DNA of 64,000 nucleotides from assembly GCA_018920365.1 (NCBI GenBank), contig JAHLMM010000001.1:4449-68448 (forward strand), read 5' to 3'. Position numbers and translations under genes: made by a program. The notes under the pieces are model-generated. The model had not been told where the DNA came from, searched no databases, and saw only the letters and a list, made by a program, of their open reading frames with translations. This document shows, in pieces, positions 17,259 through 44,008 of this stretch (its first letter is position 1; the number at the start of each line of letters is the position of its first letter). Source of the DNA: Candidatus Aenigmatarchaeota archaeon. Its GTDB lineage: Archaea > Aenigmatarchaeota > Aenigmatarchaeia > CG10238-14.

Positions 17259-17669
17259 ATGAAAGGATATGAAGAAATGCTTGAAGAAGGGCTGCAAAAA
17301 ATACCTGAAGAAGTAAAATCTGATAATAGGTTAGAAATACCAAAACCAGAAGTAACTATATCTGGAAGCCAAACAATTATAGCAAACTTTATAGAAATAA
17401 CAAATGTCATAAGAAGAAAGCCAGATCATTTGCTTAAATTCCTTTCTAGAGAGTTGGCTGCACCTGCTCATATTGAAGGCAGCAGGGCAATCTTTCAAGG
17501 AAAGTTATACAGTGGTTTGATAGAGAAAAAGCTGGAATCATACTTTAAAGAATTTTTGTATTGCCCTGTATGTAAAAAACCTGATACACAGATTATAAAG
17601 CAAGACAGAATATATCTCTTAAAATGTGAAGCTTGTGGTGCAAAAAACCCTGTAAGAGCTATAAAATAA
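17259..17669 (+). CDS. eif2b: translation initiation factor aIF2 beta subunit
   Basis: 'YEEMLEEGLQKIPE', 'HLLKFLSRELAAPAHIEG' and the zinc ribbon 'CPVCKKPDT..LKCEACGA'. Confidence 0.9.
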   Translation: MKGYEEMLEEGLQKIPEEVKSDNRLEIPKPEVTISGSQTIIANFIEITNVIRRKPDHLLKFLSRELAAPAHIEGSRAIFQGKLYSGLIEKKLESYFKEFLYCPVCKKPDTQIIKQDRIYLLKCEACGAKNPVRAIK

Positions 17670-18876: not shown

Positions 18877-21705
18877 ATGAAAATTGAATGGTTTGTTTTA
18901 ATAGCTATAATATTGCCGTCAGTTTTGGCTATTCAATGTACTATAAGGCAAAACTCATGCAATACTGGTGAGATATGTTTATTTTCTAGATATCAGGCTA
19001 ACAACACTCATGTAGGCAACTGTACAGCATATGGTAATTTGACATGCTGTTCTGATCCTTATCTTGCTAGAGCACAGATAAAAGCTTCATGTAATCTTGG
19101 CGAAAATGGTACTATATCATTATACAACTATACTAATTCTCATGCAGAAATCTATACTCAAGGCACATACAACTATAAAGTTTGCGTGGATTGTCCCTGG
19201 ATATGCACTTTGAGAGCAAGTTGTTTAAGCGATGAATATGCAATAGCGTCAATAAATGCTAGCACAAACGCACACATAGGAGAGCCTGGTTTTTATGCAA
19301 ATCAGGTTTGCTGCAAAAATGAGAATGTTCAACCAACTTATTCAAATCTCGGTGAAAATGCAACAGTAATAGATTATAATAGAGCTGTTAAGCTATACAC
19401 ATTATGGCAGGATAATGGTAATATATCTCATGCAATATTAGAAACAAATGAAACTGGTGTATGGCAGAATAAAAGTATATATGGATCTCCTTTATCAATC
19501 AGAGCTAATTCTGGATGGAGTAATTTCACATGGCAAAATTCTTCTTTTTCTGATATTTTGATAGGTTGGAGGATTTATGCAAACGATACATGCGGAAATT
19601 GGCATGTTACTCCCATCACTACATTCAGAGTCAATTCAATAAATCTCAATCAATGTCAAAATATCACGTCAAGCGGAAGTTATATTCTAACGACTGATGT
19701 GAGTGCTGTTGGTACATGTTTTAATATAACTGCTGTTAATGTTACGTTAAATTGTAATAAAAAGTCAATATCTTATGCTATTTCAACAATCGGTTATGGT
19801 GTTTATATTAAAAGTAATAATGTCACAATAACAAACTGCACAATTATAGAATCTGGATCATCATTAAATGATGATTCTTATGCTATATATGTTCTATCAA
19901 ATTATACAAAGATAATTGATAATAGTATAAGTACTGATGGTGTGTTTGATGGAGCAAGCATTCATGGAATTTATCTATATAATGCTAACAACAACACTAT
20001 AAGTAAAAACAATATATCAGTAGCAGGCGGGCTTTATGGAGGATATGGGATATTTCTAGATTCTAGTTCAAAAAACAATATAACTTATAACAACATAAAC
20101 AGCAGTGATAATTTAGCTATATATGTTTCCGGCAGTACTATGCAACATTTTGATAATTATATAGATACAACAAACACAGAATTTGGAAAAACTATTTATT
20201 ATTATTTTAATCAAAGTGATATAAAAATAGAAAATAAAGATGCGGGAGAAATATTCTTTGCATATTCTAATAAAACAATTGTAAACAATGTTACTCTGGA
20301 CAAAGATGGGATAATACTTTACAAAACAAACAATTCAATAATAAATTCAAGTGTAATAAAAACAGACAAAAATATTTACATAGAATCAGGAAACAATATT
20401 ACATTGATCAACAATATTATAAGAAATTTTTTTAGTAATGTTGTCTATTTTAATGGTTCGAGAATTATTATCTTAGCAAACAATAATATAACTTGCCATA
20501 CATCACTAAACGAAAGATGTATCTATTTTTCATTTTCAAACAATAATACCATCATAAACAACAATATAACAGATTATTATAGTGAGGGCAATGTCATTTT
20601 TTTAAGCAATTCTGTAAACAACACATTAAATAATAATAATATAACTGTATTTGGCTCTGGTTCATACGGAATTTTATTCCAAGGATCAAATAACACATTG
20701 ATAAGCAAAACAAATCTGAATGCTACTGGAGTTTCTTATGGTGTTTATATAAATTGGAAAAGCTTCAACATATCAATAATAAACAGCACATTAAATTCAA
20801 CTTTTAGTGATATTTCATTTAACGGTAATTCTTCTGTTCAAATAATAAATACAACTTTTAACAAATCTTCTGTTAGATGGTTATCACAATCTAACGCATG
20901 GATAAACGTTTCTTACTATGTTGATGTTTATGTAAGAAACAGTACAGGATCTGTTGATTCAGCTCAGGTTAATATGACAAATTATACAAATTCACTCGTG
21001 TTTTCAGGGCAGACAAATAGTAATGGTTATACGACTATTGTCTTATTACCTGAATTCTTTGCTAATGGCAGCTATAGCTATTCCTGTCCTTCGTCTCAAG
21101 CCAATTTGAGTTGTGCTAGTCCTTACAATTTTTCTGCATCTAAAGGAAGTTTATTTAATTCAACAATAGAATATGTAAATCAAAGTAAAACAATTCAAAT
21201 ATATTTTGAAAAAATACTTTCTGTAACACTTTCTAATAGATTAAGCGAAGGTATATTTTTCACAAATTCCGTCGGCTCACAAACAAACACACAAGGAGAT
21301 ATAGATATAACAAGATGGAATAATGGAACTTGGAATTATAATAATACACCGCAACCAGGCAATTTAAAAACTCTCTATTGGGTTTATAACAGCGGTAATA
21401 CTCCACAAGATATTTGTTTAAAGGCAAATGCTGATTTAACTTGCAGCCAAGGTGCATGTGCAACAAATACAATTTCAGTTACAAATATTGCATATACAAA
21501 TTCAACATACAATAATGCTACCCATCCTGTTTATGCTACAACAAATACTCTTAGTTTGAGCTATGTAAAAGTTGCAGAAAACGTTCAGCCGGGCCAATAT
21601 TACTATTTCAGATTTTGGCTTTATGGTCCTATAGGCAAACCTTCTGGAATTTACAACACAACATTTTCGGTAAGGAATGTAGAATCAGGATCTTCTTGCA
21701 ATTAA
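18877..21705 (+). CDS. large secreted adhesin-like protein: Cys-rich triple repeat, long parallel beta-helix, C-terminal 'A-domain'
   Basis: 942 aa with a signal peptide. Three copies of a '..S..N.TN(A/S)H(I/V/A)..Y...(V)CC'-type unit are present. About 450 aa of 20-25-residue beta-helix-like repeats follow ('NNNITV', 'NNTISKNNISV'). The C-terminal ~160 aa is paralogous to the ORFs at 31627 and 33364. Confidence 0.7.
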   Translation: MKIEWFVLIAIILPSVLAIQCTIRQNSCNTGEICLFSRYQANNTHVGNCTAYGNLTCCSDPYLARAQIKASCNLGENGTISLYNYTNSHAEIYTQGTYNYKVCVDCPWICTLRASCLSDEYAIASINASTNAHIGEPGFYANQVCCKNENVQPTYSNLGENATVIDYNRAVKLYTLWQDNGNISHAILETNETGVWQNKSIYGSPLSIRANSGWSNFTWQNSSFSDILIGWRIYANDTCGNWHVTPITTFRVNSINLNQCQNITSSGSYILTTDVSAVGTCFNITAVNVTLNCNKKSISYAISTIGYGVYIKSNNVTITNCTIIESGSSLNDDSYAIYVLSNYTKIIDNSISTDGVFDGASIHGIYLYNANNNTISKNNISVAGGLYGGYGIFLDSSSKNNITYNNINSSDNLAIYVSGSTMQHFDNYIDTTNTEFGKTIYYYFNQSDIKIENKDAGEIFFAYSNKTIVNNVTLDKDGIILYKTNNSIINSSVIKTDKNIYIESGNNITLINNIIRNFFSNVVYFNGSRIIILANNNITCHTSLNERCIYFSFSNNNTIINNNITDYYSEGNVIFLSNSVNNTLNNNNITVFGSGSYGILFQGSNNTLISKTNLNATGVSYGVYINWKSFNISIINSTLNSTFSDISFNGNSSVQIINTTFNKSSVRWLSQSNAWINVSYYVDVYVRNSTGSVDSAQVNMTNYTNSLVFSGQTNSNGYTTIVLLPEFFANGSYSYSCPSSQANLSCASPYNFSASKGSLFNSTIEYVNQSKTIQIYFEKILSVTLSNRLSEGIFFTNSVGSQTNTQGDIDITRWNNGTWNYNNTPQPGNLKTLYWVYNSGNTPQDICLKANADLTCSQGACATNTISVTNIAYTNSTYNNATHPVYATTNTLSLSYVKVAENVQPGQYYYFRFWLYGPIGKPSGIYNTTFSVRNVESGSSCN
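21215..21702 (+). other. C-terminal A-domain of the 942-aa protein (paralogue of the 31627 and 33364 gene products)
   Basis: Shared blocks are 'G(I/V)FFTN', 'WNYNNT/GNYNGT', 'YWV/YYV', paired Cys, 'Y(F/M)R(F/Y)W(L/I)', 'P(S)G(I/V)YNTT(F/Y)', and a Cys within the last 1-3 residues. Confidence 0.7.
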
Positions 21706-22899
21706 TGATATTTGTTGTTCGACCAAAGATTTTATTTCATCATTTCCATATTGCTCCCATATATAAGACAGGTAATATAAATTTCTTAAAAGATAATTTT
21801 CAGAATCGTTTGTCCATGAATTCAATTCTATTAGTCTGTTTCTCAATGATTTGATGAAATCTATTTGTGTCTGAATTTCTTCTTTTGTTGATAAAATTTT
21901 TAAAACGTCAACTGCTTGCAAAAATTTGAAATAAAGATCGCTCTTTTGATCGATTTTTAAATTGGTTTTTGAAGACAAATCAGATTTAACTGAATTCAAC
22001 AAAGATGTTATTTCGTTCAATGTGTTTGTCAGTCTCTTCTTCTCATCATCGATTTCCTTTTTAGCCTCTTGCTTAGATAGCTCAATTATTTTTTTAATTT
22101 CGCCCAAATAATTTTTGTTAACATTTTCTATATTTTTCTTTGTCATCTCCTCTATCAACTTTTCCACATTTTCTTTCTCAATCAACTTTGGTATTTTTAT
22201 GCTAATGCCATCAAGCATCTTAACTATATCAACTGTTAAATCATCCAATTTTTGAATTTTACCTTTCATATCTTCAACATCTTTCATCTTACTTTCCATT
22301 TCAGAAAATATTGTTTCAGATTTTCCAGCAAGCCTGTCAACATATAGTTTTGTATCGTCTATAAGCTGTATTTTTTCACTTAATTTTTTGTACATAGCTA
22401 CAAGATTCTCAATATTTTTTATCTTCTCCAAAATTGAATTTAGCCTTTCATTGTCTTTCTTTATAGAAGCCAAAACGTTTTTCAAAGATTCTGATTCAGC
22501 TTGCAATTTTAAAATATCTGCCTCTTTTTTCTGTAAATCTTTGTAAAACTTTTCAGGTTGAATTTGATTAACAGAATCCAAGACTTTTTCAACTCTTGAT
22601 TCTAGTGAAGTAAAGTTTTTGTCTAATTCTAGAAAGGATGATCTTAGTTCACCTATTTCCTCTGAGATTCTTGCTATCCTTTCATTTATATCATCTTTAA
22701 CATCTTCAAACGCAGAGAACTTGCCTTCTAATTTTTCTATTCTTAATAGCAAACTTAAAGGATTTGTATCTCCTTCTTGGACATTTTGTTTTTCTTGTTT
22801 GACAACTTCTTCTTGAACTTGCTGTTTTGGTATATCTTTAGTAACACCAAACTTGGCTTTTAATGCTTCCTTTTTATCATCTTTTTTAGGCAATATCAT
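21685..22899 (-). CDS. long coiled-coil protein, translationally coupled to the giant ATPase-bearing surface protein
   Basis: 404 aa. It is almost entirely heptad-like and rich in K, E, L and I, with no TM segment or signal peptide. Its ATG overlaps the TGA of the upstream gene (ATGA at 22896-22899). Confidence 0.7.
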   Translation of the reverse strand: MILPKKDDKKEALKAKFGVTKDIPKQQVQEEVVKQEKQNVQEGDTNPLSLLLRIEKLEGKFSAFEDVKDDINERIARISEEIGELRSSFLELDKNFTSLESRVEKVLDSVNQIQPEKFYKDLQKKEADILKLQAESESLKNVLASIKKDNERLNSILEKIKNIENLVAMYKKLSEKIQLIDDTKLYVDRLAGKSETIFSEMESKMKDVEDMKGKIQKLDDLTVDIVKMLDGISIKIPKLIEKENVEKLIEEMTKKNIENVNKNYLGEIKKIIELSKQEAKKEIDDEKKRLTNTLNEITSLLNSVKSDLSSKTNLKIDQKSDLYFKFLQAVDVLKILSTKEEIQTQIDFIKSLRNRLIELNSWTNDSENYLLRNLYYLSYIWEQYGNDEIKSLVEQQISLIARRS

Positions 22900-25800
22900 T
22901 TACTCAACCCTAATTTTTTATTTAGCGATTCGATATATATTTCTGCTACTCTGAACATTCCTTTCTTTAGTTTGTCTTTTGCCAGCTTTAACTCTATTCT
23001 CAAGTCAAATACATCTTTTCCTGTACTGGCTAGCTTCTCTATTTCCTGTTCTAATTTTTCAATTCTAGAATTATATTCTTTATACATTTGCATCTCTTGA
23101 TCTGTTATCTTGTGCGGCATATGCAGTGGCGGTCTGAATGAAATAAACCAAGGCATACCCTTGTTGTATTTTGGATTTTGTATCATGCCTATGCCAACTT
23201 CTTCCTTTGCAACTCTCCTAGCATATTCCAATCCATACTTCTTTTCAATTCTTTGCAAATCATTCAAGCTCTTCGTGTGCATTTGTATTTCTGTCAAAAC
23301 ATTACCTTTTATTGCTTCCTTGAAATCTGACAAAACTTGAGATGCCATTATTAAGCCGATACCCCACTTTCTAAATTCTCTGCATGCCCTTTCCAAAGCA
23401 ACATAACCGCCTTTGCCTCCATACTTTTCAAGCAATCTGTGAACTTCGTCAAAAACTATTATTAATCTTGGTTGCGTAGACTCTTCCCATGATTGGCTGA
23501 AAATGCTGTCAATAATATTTGTAACAGCCTCGTCATATTCACCTGGCTTCAATTTATTCAAAACAAACACTGTTATTTCACCAGGATTCATGTATTTCTT
23601 GAAATCTATTTTTGCTTTTGGATCTGTCATTTCATAGATATTTCCAGGATAGGATTTTGTATTGTCTATTGTTAACCCATGATTTTTATAATATTTCAAA
23701 ACATTCTCATCTTTGCATGGTTTGACAAAACCGGTCCATTGTGCTGTTGGATCAAAGACAACAACAGGTATTTTCTTTTCAAGCAACTCTTCTGCAAATA
23801 TGCTAGCTGAAACTGATTTTCCTGCACCTGTTGAACCAGCAACTATAATATGTGTTGTTATATCATTTGATGAAAATGTTGCTTTGATGTTTGTTTCAGC
23901 TACTTTACCTAAATGCAAATCACCTTGTGGCAACAATCCGAAATTAACTGGAAATATGTATCTGAGTTTTGATTTTTTCCATTGTATGTATTTTCTAACA
24001 GCAACAAAAGCTATTATTATTGAAAGTAAAGACACTATACCTATTATTATATATCTTAATGTTGCTGCTGTGATTATAGATGAAGATATGTCAAAAGTAT
24101 CTATTGCTGAAAGTTTACCATCAGAATAAGTTGCATTTACAACCACATAATACTTTCCAGAAGTTATATTTTCTGGTAAATGAATGTATTTCAATATTTG
24201 GTGTGGTGTTTTTATGCTTACCTGCTCAGTTTCAGTATAAATAATATCATCTTGCTTGAATCTCTGTATTGCATATGTTATCTCTGCTTCTATTTCTTTC
24301 TTTTGTGTTAAACTATAAAAACCGACTTCAAATGCCAATGTTTCATTTGGCTTGAGTGTTTTTGTTATTGTCTTTAAGCTTAATTGCAATTCAGATGTAT
24401 CTTTTGTAACAAATATTGTAATAGGTAATCTTTCACTCCTACCGCTTGAAACAACTATTTCGCCTGTGTATGTACCTACTTGAATATTTTCAGGAACATT
24501 TAGATCAATAACTACTTCTTTTTCTTTTGACGATTCAACGAGAACTGATTTTTGTCTTAGAGATAGCAGGTTTGATGCAGGACCATTGATAAGTATATTT
24601 GCTTGAATGGATTGAGACATTAGATTTGATATCCATAACGAATATGATTTTTTGTTTCCAGGATTAACATAATCTTGAGTTAAATTTGTCTTGACACTGA
24701 ATACACCTGTACAATCCTGTGGGCATGTGAATGGGTTTTCTGTTGTGTCACATATACCGTTGCCACAACTCTCTTTATAGCCACTGCTACCAGCACCACC
24801 AGCAGCAGAAGATACTGGTTGCTGCGTCATCCCAGTACCACCTGTTGAGCATTCTCCACAATCAGCCACACAATTTACACATGATTCTCCTGTTCCACAT
24901 ATAGAGTTTCCACAAATTTCTGCTTCAAAAAGATAATAAGCTGATGTACTGTTCTGTAAAGTAAATGCTTTGTAAGATGTAGAGTTTACTGTCGTGTTCA
25001 CCTCTTGCCATCCAGAACTGCATTGACCTGTCCAGTTTGAACATTTGTAAATGACTAACGCAGGTGCATAATCTATTTCTCCTATTTTTTTAGAATAATC
25101 AAATGAAACAGTTACATTTGAATATGCAAAGCTCGATGATATGTAAATTCCGGCGATTTCATGTCTCCATGGCACAGGAGGATTCAGAATTATCAACGGT
25201 ATTACAGATATGTTTAATGGGTTTGTTATATTTGAAACAGAACCAAACTGCTGTTTTGATGTTTCAGTTGAATTAAGATCATTAAAAATTATTTCATGCA
25301 TCTGGCTAGCGTCATCTTGTATCTCTGCATAGAGATCATAATTTCTTTGATGCAATGTCAAATTCTGCTGACCTGCTGGGTTTGTAAAGTTGTGTATAAT
25401 CTCATTCCTTCCTGGTCTATAAAACAAATATCTCACTGGATATGAAGTGTCGGCGTATAATTGAATTGTATCATAAACTTCAAACCAAGTTGAGTTTGAT
25501 GATGTATAGTTTGATGTATCATTGGCATACAAAATTATATCATAATCGCCAACAAAATTCATTTGGGTAAAATTTGAATACCAAACTGTTTGTTTTAAAT
25601 CACCTGTTGAGTTAGTCAAATAAATTGTCTGGTTAGTTCCATTTGGATGATAAACATCTATCCAAGCATGGCTTACACCATACCAATCTGTTATGTTTGC
25701 TGTGATTGATGTATTTCCTCCTTTCAATGTTGAATTTATCTTAATGCTGTTTATTTTAGGAGGTGTTGTATCTTTTTCTATAATAACTATATCTTTTGAA

Positions 25801-28800
25801 TCTTCTTTTTGAGAAGCATTATACTTTCTATAAGCATCTAAATTTTGATCTGTTATATTACACATTATAGTATATAATCCTTCAGGAACTGTTTGATTTG
25901 ATGATATATTCCACAAATAGTTTACTGTACCTGATGGGAAGATTGTATTCATGCTAGCAAGCTTGACAAAATTTCCGCCTTCGTATTTATACAATATATC
26001 CACACTATATGGATCTAACTTCACTAGAGTGTTATTTGCATCTGAAACTTCACAGGAAATATTTATTATCCTATTTGTCTCAGTTCTGTTAAAAGTTCCG
26101 TTAGAAGGTTGCAACAATTTTACTTGCGACCAACCATAAATGTTAATGTTTCTTGTTTGCGTATTTTGATTGTACAATTCGCCTGTTATTCTATTTGATA
26201 ATATTAATATGCCTGGGTTGCACTGTACATTCCATGTAGTATTAGTAGCTATGGTTGAATTGTAAATTGGTGGGTATGTTTGCGATGTACAATTAAAGAT
26301 CCATGTTGATGTGTATTGATGTTCTGGCACACCACAAGAATCCAAAATGTAAGAAGATAAATTCATTTCTTCTCCTTTGTGATATATTTCTGTAGTTAAT
26401 GGCGATAAAATTGATGAGTTTATGGTATCTTTTATAAACAAATTAATCAAATGCTGTTTTTGATCGAGATAATAATATGTGTTTGAAGATGATGGGAGAG
26501 AAACATTAAATTCATACAAACCTAATTGATACGAACATGATGGTTGAAACGAGATTTGACAAACGCCTGTAGAGTTTGTTGTGTTAGTACCTATCTGTGT
26601 TTGATTTATAATAAATGAACATTGCTGCCCTGATAACCTTATCTGCTGACCATATTCATCAAATATTCTTGCGCTTATTATCCTATTTTGATTTCTTGTT
26701 ATGTTTGATTGATAAATGCTTTGAGTGAAATTTACATTCATTTTTCCATACAAATATATTGTCTGATTTGAAGACAAGCTATCATTATAAATATTGTCAT
26801 TATAAACACCTACTCTCCACCATCTTAATCCTGGTTCATAACTTGAGTTAGGCGTGAAAAGATAATTGCAATAACCAGACGAGTTTGTTGATGTTTGATA
26901 GCCTAAATCCCATGATGTTTGATTTTTGCTTATCCAAAACATGCAAACTGCACTAGTTGCTGGTGAGTTGTCGATGCTATCATTTATATACGCACTCAAT
27001 AAAATAGACTGGGATCTATTTATATGAGATTCATTCCCTTGAACAATTATAGGTGCAGTTAAATGTTTTGTTACATTCGGACCATAATAAACATTGTAAT
27101 AGCTATAATCATGATATACAGTTTCATTTTCAAAATCGCTCAGCAAAAATGTCAAAATGTTATATCCTACCCATGTAGAATTTGTTTCAATTTCAAAATA
27201 TAGCTCTTCGCCATATATAGTGTTGGATGTCGTATTCTTTTCGCTAAAACATTGCCATGTGAGTTGTGATGTATTTATATCGTTTATGTCAAATGTTTTA
27301 GTCAAATTTATGCATGGTATTACAGAAATATTATTCCCTTCAGCATCACTAACATTAACATATACAGTAAAATTCCTTCCCCAAAAATTGTCTGAAGATA
27401 TGTTTACATTATTTATCACAGGTGGATTGTTTGCTGATCCAGATACTTCATAAATTGTGAATGTTCTGTTTGTGTCAGGCTGTTTCCAGGCGAAAAAATC
27501 TACTCTACCATCATTGTTTGTATCCTGTTTGCAAACAAAAAATGTATAGTTTTCTATACTAATTTCACTATAAGTTGGGTTTGAATTACAATTTGTTCTA
27601 GTTTGTGCTGGTGTTATATCATACAAAGTTCCATTGTTAAACCAATCAACTCTTAATTTAGAATTACCTGTTATGTAGTTTTCATCCAAAGATGTGCTCA
27701 AGATTATATTGGTGAATATTTGCGTTGTAGTATTCCAAACAGTTATATTTTTTTTCCAAAATCCATATTGGGCTACACCTTCTGTTTCGTTATAAAGTAT
27801 AGGTATGGATGAAGACATTGTATTGTCCCATATGAAATCATATGTCAGGTTTTGGTTTGAAAATATTGTTTTTGGTTTTGATGAAATATCACATACCTTG
27901 CTGCCTTGTAGTGTTATGACATTGAATCTAGTGCCGTTGAAATCGCATACTGTGGCAGAATTTGAAACTGCTATATATTTTATTTGAAAGTCGTGAGATG
28001 GATTTACTAAGTAATTTATCTTTTTTATTTGATTGCCAACACTTTCATTTGCTGCTATACTGTCATTTCTAGACCATTCTGAAGCTAAAGAAACATAAAA
28101 TATGTTTGTTATGTTATATGAATAAGATATGTTGATTTCATTTATTTTTAATATGCCATCAAAATCTGAACTAAAATTTAATGGTAATTGACAATACCCG
28201 AAGCTGTCAGGTGAGCATGAATTTATAAAATCTTGTACTTCTGAGTTAGCTGTTATGTTTGCTGATGATCTAAATTTACCTCCATATGACCATTCAATAT
28301 CGTTATCGCTGCTTATATCCAAAGTTACATTTGTTGGAAAATATTCAAAATTCAGTATATGTAAAGTATAAACAGCTGGTATTTGAGTTCCTGCAGCAAC
28401 TTCATTTCCAGGATCTGATGTAAGATTACCTATACCGACACCTTTAACATCATTTTCTGTTTTATATTTCCATACCAAATCACCGTCTTTGCTCACAACA
28501 TAGACATAATCATCGTAACTTCCTATTACAATTTCATTTCCATTATATTCTGTGGTCACTTCACCTATCTTCACATTGTCAATAGCTGCACCAGGAGAAT
28601 ATGACCATAATATGTTTAACTCATTATCTATCATATACAAAGTCCCATTATCTGTAACAACTGCTATCTCATCATAACCGCTATCATCTATATCCAAAAC
28701 ATCTATGTCGTTTATTAGATAGCCAATGTCTTTGCTGTTTATTAGATTTCCTGATGAATCTAAAATAAAGATGGTTGAACCACTTGATGCTGCTATTTCT

Positions 28801-29528
28801 TTTCCTGATATTGCATTCAGATTGCCTATACCCACACCTCTGAAAGGAAGAGATGAAGAATAATTCCATATTTCTGATAAAGAATTTGATAAAAGATATA
28901 CTTTATTGTCACCTGCAGCAACAGCTATCTCCTCATATTCATCACTAGTAACATCAGCCACCTCTATATCATATATAATATTATTCATCGATTTGTTTTG
29001 AATTTGGCTGCCAGTAGAGTTGAAGAGAAATATTTTTGAGCCAGATGACGCGACTATTTCTTTGCCCTTTTGTGAGCTCAAATTCCCAAAATTGACTGAA
29101 GAAACATCTGTATTTATACTATAATTCCATATTTGAAACCCTGAAGCATTTAACAGTCTTATATTATGTGATGATCCAGCAGTACCAATCAATATTTCAT
29201 CCCACGGTATATCTTCATTTATATTTCCAACTTTTAGATCTAGAACTTGCTCTTTTATAGTTGCGGCTATAGGCTTCATAGAACCTTCTATCCTAATTGA
29301 AGAGTTTATTATTGTAGAATTTTTTGGTAAATTTACCCAAAGTATCTTGGTTTCACTTCCATTAAAGTATATTTCTTTTGTATTTGAACTGTCATTAAAC
29401 TCTACAGTTGAAAAATTCATTACTGCGTCGTCCAAGTCAAATATAAAACTCTGCTGATTAACTGAAGTTACAGTAGAAATAAATATCACAATCAGTATTA
29501 ACAATAGCCAAAAACTACCATTCTTCAT
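22896..29528 (-). CDS. giant surface protein (2210 aa): signal peptide, FG-GAP-like propeller, long beta-rich sequon-rich ectodomain, Cys-rich modules, single TM, cytoplasmic HerA/FtsK-type P-loop ATPase
   Basis: One uninterrupted ORF. N-terminal 'FWLLLILIVIFISTVTS'. Repeated 'D(V/I)..D...EI(A/V)' propeller-like units. Modules 'CGTGESCVNCVADCGEC' and 'CGNGICDTTENPFTCPQDC'. TM 'YIIIGIVSLLSIIIAFVAV' followed by 'RKYIQWKKSK'. Walker A 'HIIVAGSTGAGKS', Walker B 'LIIVFDEVH' and 'GLIMASQ'. Confidence 0.8.
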   Translation of the reverse strand: MKNGSFWLLLILIVIFISTVTSVNQQSFIFDLDDAVMNFSTVEFNDSSNTKEIYFNGSETKILWVNLPKNSTIINSSIRIEGSMKPIAATIKEQVLDLKVGNINEDIPWDEILIGTAGSSHNIRLLNASGFQIWNYSINTDVSSVNFGNLSSQKGKEIVASSGSKIFLFNSTGSQIQNKSMNNIIYDIEVADVTSDEYEEIAVAAGDNKVYLLSNSLSEIWNYSSSLPFRGVGIGNLNAISGKEIAASSGSTIFILDSSGNLINSKDIGYLINDIDVLDIDDSGYDEIAVVTDNGTLYMIDNELNILWSYSPGAAIDNVKIGEVTTEYNGNEIVIGSYDDYVYVVSKDGDLVWKYKTENDVKGVGIGNLTSDPGNEVAAGTQIPAVYTLHILNFEYFPTNVTLDISSDNDIEWSYGGKFRSSANITANSEVQDFINSCSPDSFGYCQLPLNFSSDFDGILKINEINISYSYNITNIFYVSLASEWSRNDSIAANESVGNQIKKINYLVNPSHDFQIKYIAVSNSATVCDFNGTRFNVITLQGSKVCDISSKPKTIFSNQNLTYDFIWDNTMSSSIPILYNETEGVAQYGFWKKNITVWNTTTQIFTNIILSTSLDENYITGNSKLRVDWFNNGTLYDITPAQTRTNCNSNPTYSEISIENYTFFVCKQDTNNDGRVDFFAWKQPDTNRTFTIYEVSGSANNPPVINNVNISSDNFWGRNFTVYVNVSDAEGNNISVIPCINLTKTFDINDINTSQLTWQCFSEKNTTSNTIYGEELYFEIETNSTWVGYNILTFLLSDFENETVYHDYSYYNVYYGPNVTKHLTAPIIVQGNESHINRSQSILLSAYINDSIDNSPATSAVCMFWISKNQTSWDLGYQTSTNSSGYCNYLFTPNSSYEPGLRWWRVGVYNDNIYNDSLSSNQTIYLYGKMNVNFTQSIYQSNITRNQNRIISARIFDEYGQQIRLSGQQCSFIINQTQIGTNTTNSTGVCQISFQPSCSYQLGLYEFNVSLPSSSNTYYYLDQKQHLINLFIKDTINSSILSPLTTEIYHKGEEMNLSSYILDSCGVPEHQYTSTWIFNCTSQTYPPIYNSTIATNTTWNVQCNPGILILSNRITGELYNQNTQTRNINIYGWSQVKLLQPSNGTFNRTETNRIINISCEVSDANNTLVKLDPYSVDILYKYEGGNFVKLASMNTIFPSGTVNYLWNISSNQTVPEGLYTIMCNITDQNLDAYRKYNASQKEDSKDIVIIEKDTTPPKINSIKINSTLKGGNTSITANITDWYGVSHAWIDVYHPNGTNQTIYLTNSTGDLKQTVWYSNFTQMNFVGDYDIILYANDTSNYTSSNSTWFEVYDTIQLYADTSYPVRYLFYRPGRNEIIHNFTNPAGQQNLTLHQRNYDLYAEIQDDASQMHEIIFNDLNSTETSKQQFGSVSNITNPLNISVIPLIILNPPVPWRHEIAGIYISSSFAYSNVTVSFDYSKKIGEIDYAPALVIYKCSNWTGQCSSGWQEVNTTVNSTSYKAFTLQNSTSAYYLFEAEICGNSICGTGESCVNCVADCGECSTGGTGMTQQPVSSAAGGAGSSGYKESCGNGICDTTENPFTCPQDCTGVFSVKTNLTQDYVNPGNKKSYSLWISNLMSQSIQANILINGPASNLLSLRQKSVLVESSKEKEVVIDLNVPENIQVGTYTGEIVVSSGRSERLPITIFVTKDTSELQLSLKTITKTLKPNETLAFEVGFYSLTQKKEIEAEITYAIQRFKQDDIIYTETEQVSIKTPHQILKYIHLPENITSGKYYVVVNATYSDGKLSAIDTFDISSSIITAATLRYIIIGIVSLLSIIIAFVAVRKYIQWKKSKLRYIFPVNFGLLPQGDLHLGKVAETNIKATFSSNDITTHIIVAGSTGAGKSVSASIFAEELLEKKIPVVVFDPTAQWTGFVKPCKDENVLKYYKNHGLTIDNTKSYPGNIYEMTDPKAKIDFKKYMNPGEITVFVLNKLKPGEYDEAVTNIIDSIFSQSWEESTQPRLIIVFDEVHRLLEKYGGKGGYVALERACREFRKWGIGLIMASQVLSDFKEAIKGNVLTEIQMHTKSLNDLQRIEKKYGLEYARRVAKEEVGIGMIQNPKYNKGMPWFISFRPPLHMPHKITDQEMQMYKEYNSRIEKLEQEIEKLASTGKDVFDLRIELKLAKDKLKKGMFRVAEIYIESLNKKLGLSK
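22899..23996 (-). other. cytoplasmic tail: HerA/FtsK/VirB4-superfamily (DUF87-like) ATPase domain plus terminal coiled coil
   Basis: Walker A is at 23814..23837 (GSTGAGKS) and Walker B at 23439..23465 (LIIVFDEVH). The 'ASQ' motif occupies the position of the HerA 'ATQ' motif. I found no N-x-S/T sequon in this ~366-aa tail, whereas the ectodomain is full of them. Confidence 0.7.
23997..24053 (-). other. single predicted transmembrane helix of the giant protein
   Basis: 19 hydrophobic residues 'YIIIGIVSLLSIIIAFVAV' are followed by the basic 'RKYIQWKKSK'. By the positive-inside rule the C-terminal tail is cytoplasmic. Confidence 0.7.
24710..24925 (-). other. two Cys-rich 'CG.G.C' modules flanking a Gly/Ser/Ala linker (ectodomain stalk region)
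   Basis: 'CGNSICGTGESCVNCVADCGECS-TGGTGMTQQPVSSAAGGAGSSGY-KESCGNGICDTTENPFTCPQDC'. Confidence 0.6.
28330..29260 (-). other. FG-GAP/PQQ-like beta-propeller region of the giant protein (approximate bounds)
   Basis: Recurrent ~50-60-aa units: 'IWNYS..', 'GNL..GKEI(A/V)ASSGS.IF(L/I)..S.G', 'VADVTSDEYEEIAVAA', 'VLDIDDSGYDEIAVVT', 'IGEVTTEYNGNEIVIGS' and 'IGNLTSDPGNEVAAG'. Confidence 0.5.
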
Positions 29529-29566
29529 AATCTATTATTTATGAATTTTATTAATATTAGGTTTTC

Positions 29567-31558
29567 TTATTGATAGCCCAATCTTTTCTTTATGTTTTCT
29601 AGCTTTTCTTCAAATTTCTTTTCTTTGAACTTTCTATATCTCAAATATCCCACTATCGCAGCTATGATTGCAAAAATAGTAAGAAAAACTATTTCAGCCA
29701 AAGAATAAGAGTTATATTTTAATAAATGATCAATGCTGGTACAAAATTCCTCATAATTTTTCTTTTCAAGCTCATAATCTGCCTGATTTTGAAACTCACT
29801 TACTTTGGATTTAAAAGGAAATATCTTTAATGGATAAATCTTTAGTAATCTTTCCTTCATCAAAACATCTGCTTTAATATTAACAGACTCATAGTCACTT
29901 ATTATCTTTACAAAAAGTTCTTGTGATTTTTTATATTCTTTTGATTCCAGGTTTTTGATTGCTACATCCATTAGCTTCTCTGTTTCAACAAAGCGCTGGC
30001 TTAATTCTGTTAAATCTATACACTTCATCATCAAAGTTCTACTAGCATTTTTTCTAGCCTTTTCAGCTTCTTGGTAAAGCAGTTTTGCAAGCCCTTCGTC
30101 GTCTTGAGAAACTATAAACAGTAAATTTTCCTTGTTACTTTCAACAGAGTTCTTTGCTTTAACAGAAAAAGGATATACACCCTGTTTTGCATCAATTGGT
30201 GTTTTTATAAAAACTATTATATCAGTTTTATCACCTGCATTGATCTTGTCAATTTTGTATGGTGATAATGTTAACCATTCCAAAGGCAAGCCATCTATGA
30301 CTAGCTTAATGTTAGTCAAGTTTTTTGTGCCTGTATTTGTCAATGAGACAATAAAAGAAGACAAGTTGCCGGCAAGTGAAGGTATTTTATATCTTGAAAC
30401 ATTTATGTAAAGTTCTTTCTTTTCTTCTAACGGATATGATTGGCCACCTCCTCCACCGCCTGATGGCTGGGGTGGAGGCTGTGGTTGTTGACAAGGAATA
30501 ACATTGAATGTATCAGAGGAAGATATATTTACAGCCCAATTAGCTGTTGAAACATCTAATATGCTATAAAATGTATATATACCTTCAGGTGAATTTTGTG
30601 GAAGCCTTAATGTGACAAATTTTTCTAGCGTATCGCCAACGGCAATAGTTTCTTTTCTTTCTGCATATTTGTTACCAGCATATTCTAGTATATATGTCAT
30701 ATTCACATCGATTGGTTGGTCTGGGAAGACTTTCAAAACATTTACTTTAGCAGTGACATCACCACCTTGGCAAACTTCTTTATGTTGTGATATAACTTCT
30801 GTCTGTACATCAAAAATTGCAATAGTTTGAACGTGTATCGTGACTGGTATATAAAGTGTAACTTCATTTTGCATTGAGGCTATTATATATCCTGCATAGT
30901 CTCTAGGAATCGTATTCCATGGAAGATCAATGAATACACCTATTCTCGTATAATTCCATGTTTCAGGTGGCAGATATACTGGATTGGAGGAAAAATAAAT
31001 CCAATTAGCTACATCACCAGAAGTGTTGAGAAAGACATTTGCACCATAACAAGGAAATAAAAGCCACAGATAAAGATCTTCTGAAATGAAATCTCCTGGA
31101 AATACTGTCTTCTCTATAAAAGATGGTGAAGATACAAGGCTGCCATATCTTTGTTTTATTCTAAAATTTGTTTCATAGGTTGTTTTATTATTAAAATAGA
31201 CTAAATCAGTGTAAACATTATATATACCTGCTATATCTCCGTCAGAAACATTTTTTGTGAGAAAATAAAATCTTTGTTGTGTCGGCAGTATTTGTTGATT
31301 TTTCCATGTTTGGTTAGAATACAAAGAATTATATTGGTTGTAAATTGACTGATTTAATAAAAAAACTGTTTGATTGTTGCCAGCATTAGTCACATTAGTG
31401 GTTATATTAACAACATCACCTGGACAATATGAACTGCTTGTTGGCATTACACTCAATAACAGATTTGGATACATACCAACTGAAGAATTTATTGGTGATT
31501 GAGCGGCATTAACTACATTTAAGAATAGTAATATCATCAAAAATACAAGATTTTTCAT
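29567..31558 (-). CDS. secreted/anchored protein with CARDB/NEW3-like Ig domains, Pro/Gly linker, helical region and C-terminal TM (COG1470-like architecture)
   Basis: Signal peptide 'MKNLVFLMILLFLNVVNA'. 'GDVVNITTNVTNAGN' and 'LSSFIVSLTNTGTKNLTNIKL' are CARDB-like strands. Linker 'QQPQPPPQPSGGGGGGQS'. C-terminal TM 'IVFLTIFAIIAAIVGYL' followed by a basic tail. Confidence 0.65.
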   Translation of the reverse strand: MKNLVFLMILLFLNVVNAAQSPINSSVGMYPNLLLSVMPTSSSYCPGDVVNITTNVTNAGNNQTVFLLNQSIYNQYNSLYSNQTWKNQQILPTQQRFYFLTKNVSDGDIAGIYNVYTDLVYFNNKTTYETNFRIKQRYGSLVSSPSFIEKTVFPGDFISEDLYLWLLFPCYGANVFLNTSGDVANWIYFSSNPVYLPPETWNYTRIGVFIDLPWNTIPRDYAGYIIASMQNEVTLYIPVTIHVQTIAIFDVQTEVISQHKEVCQGGDVTAKVNVLKVFPDQPIDVNMTYILEYAGNKYAERKETIAVGDTLEKFVTLRLPQNSPEGIYTFYSILDVSTANWAVNISSSDTFNVIPCQQPQPPPQPSGGGGGGQSYPLEEKKELYINVSRYKIPSLAGNLSSFIVSLTNTGTKNLTNIKLVIDGLPLEWLTLSPYKIDKINAGDKTDIIVFIKTPIDAKQGVYPFSVKAKNSVESNKENLLFIVSQDDEGLAKLLYQEAEKARKNASRTLMMKCIDLTELSQRFVETEKLMDVAIKNLESKEYKKSQELFVKIISDYESVNIKADVLMKERLLKIYPLKIFPFKSKVSEFQNQADYELEKKNYEEFCTSIDHLLKYNSYSLAEIVFLTIFAIIAAIVGYLRYRKFKEKKFEEKLENIKKRLGYQ

Positions 31559-31626
31559 AATTATTGTATGTTTCAGAAATTAATATTAAATTATGTTTTA
31601 TCAAATTATATCTTAGGTGAAATATT
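31559..31626. promoter_or_regulatory. 68-nt divergent intergenic region shared by the giant-protein operon (-) and the A1-B1 cassette (+)
   Basis: This is the only non-coding DNA between the two divergent units. It is AT-rich with TATA-like 'TTAATATTAAATTA', and AGGTGA lies 8 nt before the TTG start of A1. Confidence 0.4.
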
Positions 31627-32220
31627 TTGAAAAAAATTATTTTCATATTTCTAGTGATTTTAGTACTTATTAAAACAAACGAATCTGCTGATTTTGAAAT
31701 GAATGCTACAATAGAAAGTTCAATTCATTATTATATACAAACTAGTAGTCAACTTTCAAAAGGCATATTTTTTACAAATTCCACAGGTGCTGAGCAAAAT
31801 GTTCAATATAATGTCATTCCTGGCAGTTTCAACAACAATGCTGTGTGGAACTATAACAATACAGATAAAAAAACTGAATATTGGGTTTATGTTTATATTC
31901 AAGGTGCGCAAATAAATGTATGTCATGGGGCAACAAATCATTTATGCTCTAACCCAGGTTGTATAGGGTTTGACAATTATTTAATAAACATAAATAATGC
32001 TAAATGGAGTAAATCTACTTCAAACGACATTAACAACCCTTCTTTATCAAATGCTTTGCCTTTTGTCATTGGTTTTGACAATCAAAATAAAATAGCTGAC
32101 TTGACAAACAATTCACAAACAATTTACTTCAGATATTGGTTAGATATTCCACCAAGCGTTCCACCTTATATCTATAATACAACTTATCAAATAATAGGTG
32201 TTGTAGAAGATGAATGTTAA
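31627..32220 (+). CDS. secreted A-domain protein A1 (putative surface-filament/adhesin subunit)
   Basis: TTG start with an AGGTGA Shine-Dalgarno element. Signal peptide 'MKKIIFIFLVILVLIKTNES'. Blocks 'GIFFTNSTG', 'WNYNNT', 'YWVYV', 'CSNPGC', 'YFRYWLDIPP..PPYIYNTTYQI', ending '..EDEC'. Confidence 0.7.
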   Translation: MKKIIFIFLVILVLIKTNESADFEMNATIESSIHYYIQTSSQLSKGIFFTNSTGAEQNVQYNVIPGSFNNNAVWNYNNTDKKTEYWVYVYIQGAQINVCHGATNHLCSNPGCIGFDNYLININNAKWSKSTSNDINNPSLSNALPFVIGFDNQNKIADLTNNSQTIYFRYWLDIPPSVPPYIYNTTYQIIGVVEDEC

Positions 32221-32770
32221 AATATTATTTTTATTAATATTGATGCCGTATGTTACTGCTTCTGGAGTAGGTATATTCCCTTTAAATGAAAATGTCGAAA
32301 TTAAACCTTTTCAGAGATTTAGAACAAATATTTACTTGTTTAATCCATCAAACGATGATGTTTTTGTTTACACAAATGCGTCTTGCTTCATTAATGGAAA
32401 AGTATACGACTATATAAACTTTTATCCAAAAGAGTTATCCATAAATAAAAATACTTCTATACTGGAAGCAAAACCTATAATTGTATCAATACAAAATCCA
32501 CTTTTCATTGAAAATAACCAAAGTATTTTTAATTACAATGTTTTGTTTGGAGAAAATAAATTAAAATGTAGATTTTATGCGAAAACAAATGACACAACAC
32601 CTATTATTGTTACATCAAATATCAATGTTATATTAATTGGAATAAATTTAGCAAAACTCGGTTTAATTGTGTTTACCCTTCTTGTGTTGGGTTATTTTGG
32701 TATAAATAAAATAGGCAAAAAGAGCAAAAAATATACAAAGAATTATAAAACTCATCATAGGCATACCTGA
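32210..32770 (+). CDS. B1: signal peptide, beta-rich (Ig/PapD-like?) domain, C-terminal TM anchor
   Basis: It overlaps A1 by 11 nt. 'ASGVGIFPLNENVEIKPFQRFRTNIYLFNPSNDDVFVY', TM 'LGLIVFTLLVLGYFGI', and a Lys/His-rich tail. Confidence 0.6.
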   Translation: MNVKILFLLILMPYVTASGVGIFPLNENVEIKPFQRFRTNIYLFNPSNDDVFVYTNASCFINGKVYDYINFYPKELSINKNTSILEAKPIIVSIQNPLFIENNQSIFNYNVLFGENKLKCRFYAKTNDTTPIIVTSNINVILIGINLAKLGLIVFTLLVLGYFGINKIGKKSKKYTKNYKTHHRHT

Positions 32771-33352
32771 TGCATTTATTTCTATTGTTGAGCCAACTGA
32801 AGGGGTTACACCCATTTCACCAAAACTGGACGCATAAACATCTGCAACAAGTAGCCCTTTGAAACTTTTTTGCCCAATGAAAAGACTATAGTATGGAATG
32901 GCAATATAATTTTCATATTTCTTGTTAAAAACTTTGACAAAAAAATTGAAAAATTCAGGAGTATAAAGTTTCAAATAATTTTTTAAAATAAATTTTGGTG
33001 AGAAAGTAATCTTAACAGCAGGTGCATCACTGCCCATAGTTGATGGATTGATTGTTATATCTTGTTTATCAATTGTGAAAAATGATCTATAGTCTATAGT
33101 TTTCTCACCTATTTTGTGTCCAAATATTTTAACATCTTCTGTGCAGTCTTTGCAATCAAAGTAAACTTTGGCTTTTACCTCATAAATAGAAGGATTTGTT
33201 AATCTTACAACTGATGTGTAATAATCAAGTACGCTACCTGTTATATTGATATAATATGTGCTTATTCCTATGCCTACTCCATCCATACTTTGTACAGATG
33301 GAAAAATTGACAATATAAAAATCAAAATAAACATTTTCACTTTTGATTTCAT
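32663..33352 (-). CDS. B2: signal peptide, beta-rich domain, C-terminal TM anchor (distant paralogue of B1)
   Basis: ATG chosen at 33352 (the ORF track starts at a GTG at 33361). 'SMDGVGIGISTYYINITG..VVRLTNPSIYEVKAKVYFDC', TM 'MMSFIILCIFFALFAYFIY' and tail 'TKITQHKKGKHN'. Its 3' end overlaps B1 by 108 nt on the opposite strand. Confidence 0.6.
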   Translation of the reverse strand: MKSKVKMFILIFILSIFPSVQSMDGVGIGISTYYINITGSVLDYYTSVVRLTNPSIYEVKAKVYFDCKDCTEDVKIFGHKIGEKTIDYRSFFTIDKQDITINPSTMGSDAPAVKITFSPKFILKNYLKLYTPEFFNFFVKVFNKKYENYIAIPYYSLFIGQKSFKGLLVADVYASSFGEMGVTPSVGSTIEINASGMPMMSFIILCIFFALFAYFIYTKITQHKKGKHN

Positions 33353-33363
33353 ATAAATCACTA

Positions 33364-34014
33364 TTAGCAGCTACATGTACCAAATGATGAAAATACTTCT
33401 ACTGCTCTTATTTTAAATGTAGTGTTGTATACACCTGAAGGTGCTGAATTTGGTCTTGGATCTATCCAGTATCTCATGTAAATATAACTGTTTGGTGTAA
33501 GATTGCCTGCTATTGGTTGATAATCATCAACTGCCTGGAAATAATAGTTTGTCGTGTCAGGTGGTGAATGAACTGAAAATGTCGGTGTTGTACCATTTGC
33601 CCAGCCAACACCACCATCGGCTGCATAAGCTACATATAGTCTATCTGTACCTACTGCACAATCGCCTGACCTGCATAGAAGGTTTTCACATGCACAATGT
33701 GCAACTTTAACATCAATAGTGTTACCAGCACATGCTTGAACATAATATGTTGTTCCAAATGAAGTTCCATTATAGTTTCCAGTAGCATTGTTTAAAACTG
33801 TCATTACAGTTATAGGATACTGTACGCCCATTGTTGTTCTGTTTGTGAAAAATACACCAGCTGAATAATTTCCTGATAATTGAACGCATATAGGCTGTTG
33901 AATACTAGCATTCATATCTGCTCTGAATTCCTGCTGTCCCAAAATAGTAGTTAACGAAAGCCAAAATGATAATAATACGGTCAAAATCAATGAAACAAAC
34001 AAACGATCGTTCAT
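33364..34014 (-). CDS. secreted A-domain protein A2
   Basis: Signal/TM 'LFVSLILTVLLSFWLSLTTILG'. Blocks 'GVFFTNRT', 'GNYNGT', 'YYVQAC', 'CRSGDC', 'YMRYWIDPRPNSAPSGVYNTTFKI', ending '..GTCSC'. Confidence 0.7.
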   Translation of the reverse strand: MNDRLFVSLILTVLLSFWLSLTTILGQQEFRADMNASIQQPICVQLSGNYSAGVFFTNRTTMGVQYPITVMTVLNNATGNYNGTSFGTTYYVQACAGNTIDVKVAHCACENLLCRSGDCAVGTDRLYVAYAADGGVGWANGTTPTFSVHSPPDTTNYYFQAVDDYQPIAGNLTPNSYIYMRYWIDPRPNSAPSGVYNTTFKIRAVEVFSSFGTCSC

Positions 34015-41836: not shown

Positions 41837-42274
41837 ATGAAAGGGATATCTGCTTTTGTAAGCATTGTTCTAATAATAGCTTTAACTATAAGTGTTGGTG
41901 CTATATTTTCTAGATGGTTCACAAGCTATATCAGAACAACATCCCAAGATATTGAAGATCAAAGCAAAACAAAAATAACATGCAGTAATGCTGGTATTGC
42001 TTTAAGCAGAGTCACATACAATCAGACTTCTGGCTATATTTATGGATATATTAGAAACACTGATCTTGTCTCTCTTGGTGACATAGATGTTGAAATATTT
42101 TTGAAAAATGCTACAAGGATTTTTGCTGACATTAATTTATCATTGACTCCAGGAGAGCAGAATAGTTTTTCTTATAACCTAAATACAGCAAATTATGATT
42201 ATATCAGAGTGAAGACAAACTGTTCAAATGTTTATGATTATTTAATGTCTGAACAGATTTTGACTGTTAATTAA
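41837..42274 (+). CDS. archaeal type IV pilin
   Basis: 'MKG|ISAFVSIVLIIALTISVGAIF'. It lies 2 nt after the preceding pilin gene. Confidence 0.75.
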   Translation: MKGISAFVSIVLIIALTISVGAIFSRWFTSYIRTTSQDIEDQSKTKITCSNAGIALSRVTYNQTSGYIYGYIRNTDLVSLGDIDVEIFLKNATRIFADINLSLTPGEQNSFSYNLNTANYDYIRVKTNCSNVYDYLMSEQILTVN

Positions 42275-43973: not shown

Positions 43974-44008
43974 TAATTTTAATTTGATGTTTGTAAGTAA
44001 AATGTTTT

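Follow-up and report, generated by a model that had tools for sequence, protein, structure and literature searches.

Gene Layout at the Locus

We analyzed a stretch of 64,000 nucleotides from Candidatus Aenigmatarchaeota archaeon (GenBank assembly GCA_018920365.1, contig JAHLMM010000001.1, positions 4,449 to 68,448 of the forward strand; hereafter the window), in which three adjacent minus-strand genes encode a giant surface protein with a cytoplasmic ATPase tail and its two companions. The letters and the list of open reading frames (ORFs) were re-examined for the layout, and Pfam, NCBIfam, hydropathy, AlphaFold2 (AF2) and hidden Markov model (HMM) searches were added on top. In the direction of transcription, the gene of a 663-aa surface protein (29567..31558) is followed, after a gap of 38 nt (29529..29566) that is a candidate promoter of the two genes downstream, by the gene of the 2210-aa giant (22896..29528) and by that of a 404-aa coiled-coil protein (21685..22899). 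The stop codon of the giant gene and the start codon of the coiled-coil gene overlap in an ATGA at 22896..22899, and a 4-nt overlap was also found in 10 related loci. A divergent intergenic region of 68 nt (31559..31626) lies between the 663-aa gene and gene A1, which begins at 31627 with a TTG start preceded by a Shine-Dalgarno-like AGGTGA motif. On the opposite side, the convergent 942-aa gene ends at 21705 and thereby overlaps the coiled-coil gene by 21 nt. These coordinates and junctions had been given in an earlier reading of the DNA made from the sequence alone (the original prediction), and all of them were correct on re-reading.

The Giant Protein Carries a HerA/FtsK-Type ATPase Tail

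The 2210-aa protein is a type I membrane protein that exposes a glycosylated ectodomain to the outside and an ATPase tail to the cytoplasm. Hydropathy analysis revealed a signal peptide (aa 1-23; aa 5-23 in the family membership test) and a single transmembrane (TM) helix (aa 1826-1844, 23997..24053). All 90 N-X-S/T sequons lie in the extracytoplasmic part before the TM helix (aa 1-1825, 24054..29528; delimited by hydropathy, Pfam and sequons) and none was found after it, which fixes the topology with the ectodomain outside and the tail inside. Within the ectodomain we found beta-propeller repeats (about aa 95-400, nt 28329-29246; Pfam, 1.7e-12), immunoglobulin (Ig)-like domains, Cys-rich knots and a juxtamembrane double-Ig module (about aa 1620-1815, nt 24084-24671). 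Across the family, conservation does not extend to the TM helix: none of its 19 columns reaches 90% identity, compared to 98 of 271 in the ATPase domain. Because of this variability, the TM helix looks like an anchor rather than a pore.

The tail holds a P-loop ATPase domain of the HerA/FtsK superfamily (aa 1871-2141, 23106..23918), recognized by Pfam, the AF2 model and fold matches. Walker A (GSTGAGKS, aa 1898-1905), Walker B (VFDEVH, with its DE pair) and a CREFRKWG motif are invariant in a cross-phylum alignment of 14 sequences. Pfam assigned the domain to DUF87/HerA with 46.2 bits (cutoff 23.2), and HerA_C also scored above its cutoff. The top NCBIfam match was CedD (5.4e-15), with 55 bits versus a cutoff of 600. 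An AF2 model of the last 394 aa (predicted local distance difference test, pLDDT, 83.6; predicted template modeling score, pTM, 0.79) comprises the TM helix, a RecA-like core and three terminal helices. When this model was ranked against the PDB, HerA hexamers came first (4d2i, 6.4e-12; 9x1l and 8xav were also matched), followed by anti-phage HerA, FtsK, the STIV B204 packaging ATPase and the TcpA coupling protein; VirB4 was not among the top 50 fold matches. A sequence search of the PDB agreed, with HerA as best match and the FtsK motor matched as well. These data show that the tail is an intact P-loop ATPase of the HerA/FtsK type, closest to HerA and FtsK.

The ATPase domain is followed by a helical, coiled-coil tip (aa 2142-2210, 22899..23105) with a conserved LELKLAxxKLKxGxF..Y motif, which is a candidate docking site for the partner protein. 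The three terminal helices of the AF2 model (tail residues 327-390, pLDDT above 90) bear out the coiled-coil end that had been predicted for the tail.

The Coiled-Coil Protein Belongs to a Specific Family

No hydrophobic segment occurs in the 404-aa protein, and hydropathy revealed neither a TM helix nor a signal peptide. The protein is thus cytoplasmic, as originally predicted; the topologies proposed for the giant and the 663-aa protein were likewise confirmed by hydropathy and sequons. Pfam and NCBIfam searches with the 404-aa protein returned coiled-coil noise only, with nothing above any Pfam cutoff, and eight long members of its family had no Pfam match at all. The protein is nonetheless a member of a specific family and not a generic coiled coil. 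For about 275 aa it runs collinear with the proteins encoded behind the ATPase in distant loci, and the family shares invariant positions (E80, G83, L85, R86, P115, K161, E195, F198 and D230). Its motifs comprise an invariant EEIGELRS-type motif within the helical region, P115, Y.DR...K and a YGV.K.IP motif in the disordered N-terminus. AF2 modeled helices at residues 47-113, 115-232 and 245-309 and a C-terminal four-helix bundle at 315-402. A PDB fold search with this model gave no match at E<=0.001, and the family profile gave marginal helical matches only (BAG at E 0.001).

A profile search of 1.84 billion representatives recovered 778 members at E<=1e-10. One Altiarchaeota match (P0146, E 1e-7) has no ATPase next to it and was discarded as spurious coiled-coil similarity. 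We found no description of this family in the literature searchable here. Four partners (P0259, P0275, P0305 and P0310) carry an extra conserved N-terminal domain, which has no Pfam match (motif ..GF.V.DGK....L..L.DYL...NDFAWWV..VGD..LG..) and is followed by a long acidic/basic low-complexity linker.

ATPase Tail and Coiled-Coil Partner Are the Conserved Core

We compared 85 loci, obtained by exact-protein look-up (L001-L005) or by a GTDB scan (L006-L085), and searched their ORFs with HMMs of the tail and the partner. For adjacency we counted the 81 loci in which 600 nt or more follow the last tail gene. The partner gene comes directly behind the last ATPase gene, in the same orientation, in 69 of these; in 2 further loci it is convergent with it. 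Overlapping or abutting genes account for 28 of the 69 same-strand pairs (10 by exactly 4 nt, as called) and gaps of 1-100 nt for 27 more, so that 55 pairs are spaced by 100 nt or less. A Shine-Dalgarno-like motif precedes the partner start in 34 of 70 cases scanned. Conversely, the partner HMM matched 72 of the 4113 locus ORFs, and all but one of these adjoin the last ATPase gene. The loci span at least five phyla and include Aenigmatarchaeota, Nanohaloarchaeota, Woesearchaeota, Parvarchaeota, unclassified DPANN and one member of the Hydrothermarchaeota (L042).

All-against-all clustering of 662 neighbor genes recovered the tail proteins in 85 loci and the partner in 71, and the next family in 7. 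No channel protein, type IV secretion system (T4SS) part, nuclease or polytopic membrane protein was recurrent within 10 kb on either side of the 85 loci. These data show that the tail ATPase and the coiled-coil family are the only conserved core of the system, and that the coiled-coil protein is a dedicated partner, found beside the ATPase almost wherever the ATPase occurs. The tight pairing of tail and coiled-coil protein that had been predicted from the ATGA junction is supported by this downstream position.

Some loci deviate from the simple pair. Genes of 260-305 aa lie between ATPase and partner in L042 (11164-11979), L080 (2197-2982), L028 (11154-12071) and L088 (9109-9930). Those of L042 and L080 match only the ectodomain and TM part of the tail HMM and are ATPase-less paralogs, and that of L028 matches the tail HMM weakly. 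In the metagenomic locus L088 (11542-13046), downstream of the partner come a 254-aa gene and a gene for a ParA/MinD-like ATPase, and a convergent 1654-aa NEW3-containing protein is encoded beside these genes.

The 663-aa Protein Is a Lineage-Restricted Surface Accessory

The 663-aa protein carries a signal peptide and a C-terminal TM helix (aa 619-637, nt 29648-29704) according to hydropathy. On the same minus strand it encodes a NEW3 domain (aa 400-469, nt 30152-30361; Pfam, 31 bits, cutoff 24.4), an extracellular helical region and a region of Ig-module homology found by profile-profile comparison (aa 175-355, nt 30494-31036). The latter region matched the juxtamembrane double-Ig module of the ATPase family with an hhalign probability of 96% (E 4.5e-9). 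Direct comparison of the 663-aa protein with the giant by BLAST and with the tail HMM gave nothing significant, and the 663-family profile had no matches in the PDB.

Clear homologs comprise 20 proteins with 36-100% identity, all from Aenigmatarchaeota or unnamed metagenomic sources. In L006, L007, L009, L012, L017 and L023 a homolog precedes the giant by 30-305 nt on the same strand; it is inverted in L016 and 3.5 kb distant in L020. In two further metagenome-assembled genomes (MAGs), the locus tags QXF88_00865/00875 and QXJ06_00165/00175 bracket one intervening gene. More broadly, a related C-terminally anchored protein is found upstream on the same strand in 14 of the approximately 29 loci where the 5' end of the giant gene is visible. 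We conclude that the 663-aa protein is a surface accessory, anchored at its C-terminus and restricted in lineage, and that such ATPase-less relatives are a recurrent, but not universal, addition to the system. The proposal that it forms a second envelope component of the same machine is therefore upheld in part: the shared double-Ig module and the frequent upstream position on the same strand speak for it, and the restriction of clear homologs to Aenigmatarchaeota, the inversion in L016 and the distance in L020 against it. Likewise, conservation of the gene neighborhood, by which the predicted trio was to be judged, holds across phyla for giant and partner and not for the lineage-restricted 663-aa gene.

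Promoter-Like Boxes Suggest Two Transcription Units

Within the 38-nt gap, a TATA-like A/T-rich box (AATATTAATAAAA) lies 25-35 nt ahead of the ATG of the giant gene. It follows the consensus AAT[AT]TTAAT.AAAA and is conserved in L006, L007, L009, L012 and L016; L016 keeps the box though the 663-aa gene is not upstream of the giant there. A conserved box (TTTAATATTAATTT) is also found in 31559-31626, about 30 nt ahead of the ATG of the 663-aa gene. The boxes TTTAATATTAA and AATATTAATAAAA, each about 25-35 nt upstream of the respective start and conserved in relatives, are similar to each other and may represent a shared promoter type. A Shine-Dalgarno-like motif is absent before both the 663-aa and the giant start, and the 38-nt gap contains no T-run terminator.

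Archaeal promoters carry a TATA box about 27 nt before the transcription start site, and first genes are often leaderless. Against this background, the TATA-like box, the lack of a Shine-Dalgarno-like motif and the lack of a T-run suggest that a promoter of their own probably serves the giant and coiled-coil genes, and that read-through from the 663-aa gene is possible. The transcripts would probably be a 663-aa messenger alone and a bicistron of giant and coiled-coil gene. An obligatory operon of all three genes, as in the original prediction, is weakly supported: the coupling of giant and coiled-coil gene stands, and the box before the giant start, found even in L016, speaks against an obligatory inclusion of the 663-aa gene.

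The Surrounding Gene Block Is Lineage Specific

The locus lies close to housekeeping genes that mark the window as archaeal, with aIF2-beta at 17259..17669 and genes for replication factor C (RFC), RtcB and methionyl-tRNA synthetase nearby, at a GC content of about 31%. The nearest relatives of the window are Aenigmatarchaeota MAGs, and the tail of L006 is 93% identical to that of the window. The A/B cassettes together with the 942-aa and a 383-aa beta-helix gene are syntenic only in the closest relatives (L001, L006-L009). The cassettes alone are also syntenic in L012 and L016, and in L016 they are placed between the inverted 663-aa gene and the giant. The block is missing in L072, where the flanking housekeeping genes directly adjoin each other (aIF2-beta next to o96, o129 and an RFC-like gene) and the giant/partner pair is found beyond these genes. 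From this synteny pattern it follows that the stable unit is giant plus partner. The idea that 17.7-34.0 kb form one functional module is thus weakly supported, given the synteny of cassettes and 942-aa gene in close relatives only and the missing block in L072. The region is a lineage-specific surface-gene island and not a demonstrated machine.

The two A-B cassettes (31627-34014) are mirrored, with A1 and B1 on the plus strand facing B2 and A2 on the minus strand; B1 and B2 overlap convergently by about 108 nt. A1 and A2 share 32% identity with each other and 32-35% with about 160 aa at the C-terminus of the 942-aa beta-helix protein (aa 778-940). The B proteins combine a signal peptide with a TM helix near the C-terminus. 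Neither A nor B proteins match a Pfam or NCBIfam family.

Elsewhere in the window, a 602-aa protein (1505-3313, plus strand) combines PIN, T2SSE-like ATPase and KH domains. Two minus-strand regions (42271-46057 and 60904-63021) hold a T2SSE-family ATPase with its upstream pair and an S-layer-like protein. The ATPase (682 aa, type IV pilus or archaellum-like) is preceded by two genes of about 280 aa, and the S-layer-like protein has 705 aa.

The Tail Is Shared With SPEARE Proteins of Nanohaloarchaeota

SPEARE proteins were described as giant proteins of Nanohaloarchaeota whose conserved cytoplasmic part was called a restriction enzyme, and similar sequences in Aenigmarchaeota were already noted (Hamm, 2019; PMC6642349). 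In a later study, this cytoplasmic part was reread as a TM helix, a VirB4/TraG-like ATPase and a coiled-coil tip; a second ATPase gene downstream was noted there and a T4SS-like "straw" was proposed (Reva, 2023; PMC10266531). The tail of the window giant shares 50-53% identity over more than 90% of its length with the ATPases of nanohaloarchaeal SPEARE loci. The protein of SG9 AQV86_02330, a SPEARE locus tag in Hamm (2019), is 53% identical (E 1e-129). Another close homolog is an ATPase of Ca. Nanohalovita haloferacivicina BNXNv, and the 8880-aa giant of BNXNv ends in a homologous tail (537 bits). That the system is of the already described SPEARE type had been missed in the original prediction.

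Among 8000 candidates scored, 443 proteins were tail homologs at E<=0.001. The 120 homologs listed show 47-88% identity and belong to Aenigmatarchaeota, Nanohaloarchaeota and Woesearchaeota. A scan of GTDB species representatives yielded at least 557 stretches encoding the tail. The module also occurs in Hydrothermarchaeota, on a 1.9-Mb contig of Ca. Hydrothermarchaeum profundi JdFR-18 (L042). MAGs labeled Methanosarcinales, Halobacteria and Heimdallarchaeota contain it as well, possibly through mis-binning, and L077 and L080 are also listed beside L042.

Aenigmatarchaeota as a rule have a single ATPase gene of about 2200-2950 aa, with about 2200 aa in the clade of the window. Several phyla show a layout of giant ATPase, short ATPase (620-730 aa) and partner; such tandem paralogs are present in L002-L005, L055, L060, L063, L064, L076, L078, L082 and L083. 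In a neighbor-joining tree, giant and short paralogs group by lineage and not by type, which suggests repeated duplication or gene conversion. We had considered giant and short ATPases as two ancient orthologous groups and rejected this on the basis of the same tree.

Proposed Mechanism and Alternative Readings

We lean toward regarding the locus as the Aenigmatarchaeota form of a DPANN SPEARE-type module that works as a motor, and consider this reading fairly probable. By analogy with its solved relatives, the tail would form a hexamer, a ring beneath the membrane that would hold six ectodomains together where the cell is attached to another cell or a surface. The coiled-coil partner would dock on the conserved tail tip as adaptor, regulator or scaffold, and its amount would be coupled to that of the giant by way of the ATGA overlap. 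Through the shared Ig module, the 663-aa protein may bind the giant laterally. At the site of cell contact, the ring would thread a polymer, and family precedent would make DNA the most probable substrate. Polymer translocation, most likely of DNA, is a tentative proposal to which we give less than an even chance. It is conceivable, if doubtful, that giant and partner make up the complete core of a previously uncharacterized archaeal envelope machine of several DPANN phyla and Hydrothermarchaeota, independent of T4SS and Ced, which would either transfer DNA or protein upon contact or use ATP to control a six-fold adhesin bundle.

Several observations weigh against the motor mechanism. The TM helix is unconserved and no conserved channel is encoded nearby, so that a substrate would pass without an identified conduit; these are the main unexplained points. 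No fusion of tail and partner was found in the loci or among 146 partner representatives. Occurrence in Hydrothermarchaeota (L042) means that the system is not restricted to host-dependent DPANN. Furthermore, gene starts in related loci come from a simple ORF caller, which makes exact overlaps approximate, and the promoter assignment rests on short A/T-rich motifs in an A/T-rich genome.

The same two features, a variable TM sequence and a two-component core without a conserved channel, would fit a ring that transports nothing and instead clusters, remodels or regulates six giant adhesins in their arrangement, extension or release. The partner, with its long helical rod and a conserved tip motif, would then serve as a cytoplasmic scaffold, comparable to the coiled-coil scaffolds around other archaeal membrane ATPases, and ATPase-less paralogs with ectodomain and TM helix in the same loci suggest mixed assemblies. 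However, every close relative with a solved structure is a translocase of nucleic acids and has a central pore, there is no precedent for a HerA-clade ring as a pure organizer of adhesins, and we consider this reading unlikely. More improbable in our view is the T4SS-like straw, in which effector proteins would be driven into the host by a VirB4/TraG-type ATPase, either through the ectodomain or along it. This assignment was made by the authors for nanohaloarchaeal homologs in Reva (2023), and VirB4, VirD4 and TcpA indeed belong to the HerA-FtsK superfamily. TcpA was among the fold matches, and weak Pfam and NCBIfam matches to TrwB, TraC and TraD were seen. Yet the giant lacks the VirB4 N-domain PF03135 (no Pfam match at E<=0.1) and its ATPase domain begins about 25 aa past the TM helix. 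The fold ranking placed HerA first and left VirB4 outside the top 50, the TM helix is unconserved, and the surroundings of the 85 loci hold neither a further conserved T4SS component nor a conserved polytopic membrane protein.

Two further readings are defense and restriction, and even taken together they are very improbable. A membrane-anchored HerA-based anti-phage module would account for the PADLOC matches of the tail to mad8 (1.9e-17) and several defense HerA models, and for the high rank of defense HerA complexes in the fold search. However, Sir2, DUF4297, NurA or another effector partner is not recurrent nearby, the giant glycosylated ectodomain and its signal peptide are foreign to those systems, the PADLOC matches of the partner (JetC, LmuB) are coiled-coil or SMC-like noise, and the locus is set among housekeeping genes. 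This leaves the defense module a highly improbable reading. Hardly credible is a restriction endonuclease that degrades imported DNA, the SPEARE reading stated in Hamm (2019). A ResIII helicase-type Pfam match (E 0.006) does point in this direction; it is weak, below cutoff and limited to the P-loop region, within a fold of the HerA/FtsK type. Pfam, NCBIfam and PADLOC scans revealed no nuclease domain, and Reva (2023) also concluded against it. Domain and fold analysis of the tail thus contradict a restriction enzyme.

SPEARE-type proteins are the leading candidates in the unsettled matter of how DPANN archaea hold on to their hosts and exploit them, and views on how they work differ, with a restriction enzyme on one side and a T4SS straw on the other. 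A compact version of the system is now seen in Aenigmatarchaeota, and the system reaches outside DPANN as well. The one companion conserved with it is a coiled-coil protein not described before, rather than T4SS parts. With a 394-aa tail and a 404-aa partner, it offers a small two-protein target for biochemistry or cryo-electron tomography. Measured against the searchable literature, what is new is modest: a conserved partner and the lack of T4SS parts.

Comparison With Known ATPase Systems

HerA, as in HerA-NurA and anti-phage HerA, is the best match of the tail in sequence and fold, and the tail passes the DUF87 and HerA_C cutoffs. HerA systems feature hexameric rings bound by a partner. The RecA-like core of the HerA clade is present in the giant, and the HAS-barrel N-domain and an adjacent NurA are not. 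In place of the HAS-barrel, the tail has a TM helix, directly followed by the ATPase, and a giant ectodomain. NurA, Sir2 and DUF4297 neighbors are not recurrent near the 85 loci, and NCBIfam HerA models gave 21-35 bits versus cutoffs of 800-970. CedB and CedD of the crenarchaeal Ced DNA import system resemble the tail as membrane-associated archaeal ATPases of the HerA clade that act in DNA transfer between cells. In contrast to them, the tail stays far below the CedD cutoff, lacks a VirB4-like N-domain and has no CedA-type channel or pilin genes conserved nearby.

VirB4 and VirD4 (TraG, TrwB, TcpA) are membrane-anchored hexameric motors of the same superfamily, and TcpA was among the fold matches. 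T4SS components were not recurrent with the giant within 10 kb of the 85 loci; the rest of the genomes was not searched. With FtsK/SpoIIIE the giant shares an N-terminal membrane anchor and a C-terminal RecA-like pump, and FtsK appeared among both fold and sequence matches. However, a single unconserved TM helix stands against a four-TM domain, there is no gamma domain, and the FtsK family PF01580 gave 15.9 bits versus a cutoff of 24; a polytopic N-domain with the motor signature was not found. By the tests that were run, the tail does not belong to VirB4, bona fide HerA, CedD or FtsK.

The closest correspondence is with SPEARE proteins. The giant has a signal peptide, an adhesion ectodomain, a C-terminal single TM helix, a homologous tail and a coiled-coil tip. 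The order of signal peptide, beta-propeller, Ig-like repeats, single TM helix, P-loop ATPase and coiled-coil tip is that of the published SPEARE proteins. The giant differs in size, with 2210 aa compared to 4000-9400 aa, and it has no second ATPase gene downstream. The giant is the sole ATPase gene of its locus, no short ATPase gene follows, and no second tail paralog was found in the 64-kb window. It is moreover preceded by the ATPase-less 663-aa relative. The coiled-coil partner is present at the published BNXNv locus (L003) and is not mentioned in section 11 of Reva (2023), the part of that study considered here. Giant size and a second ATPase gene are a trait of the nanohaloarchaeal examples and not of the family. 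Since the giant shows the SPEARE order of parts within 2210 aa, it is of a known kind, a compact SPEARE-type protein (Hamm, 2019; Reva, 2023).

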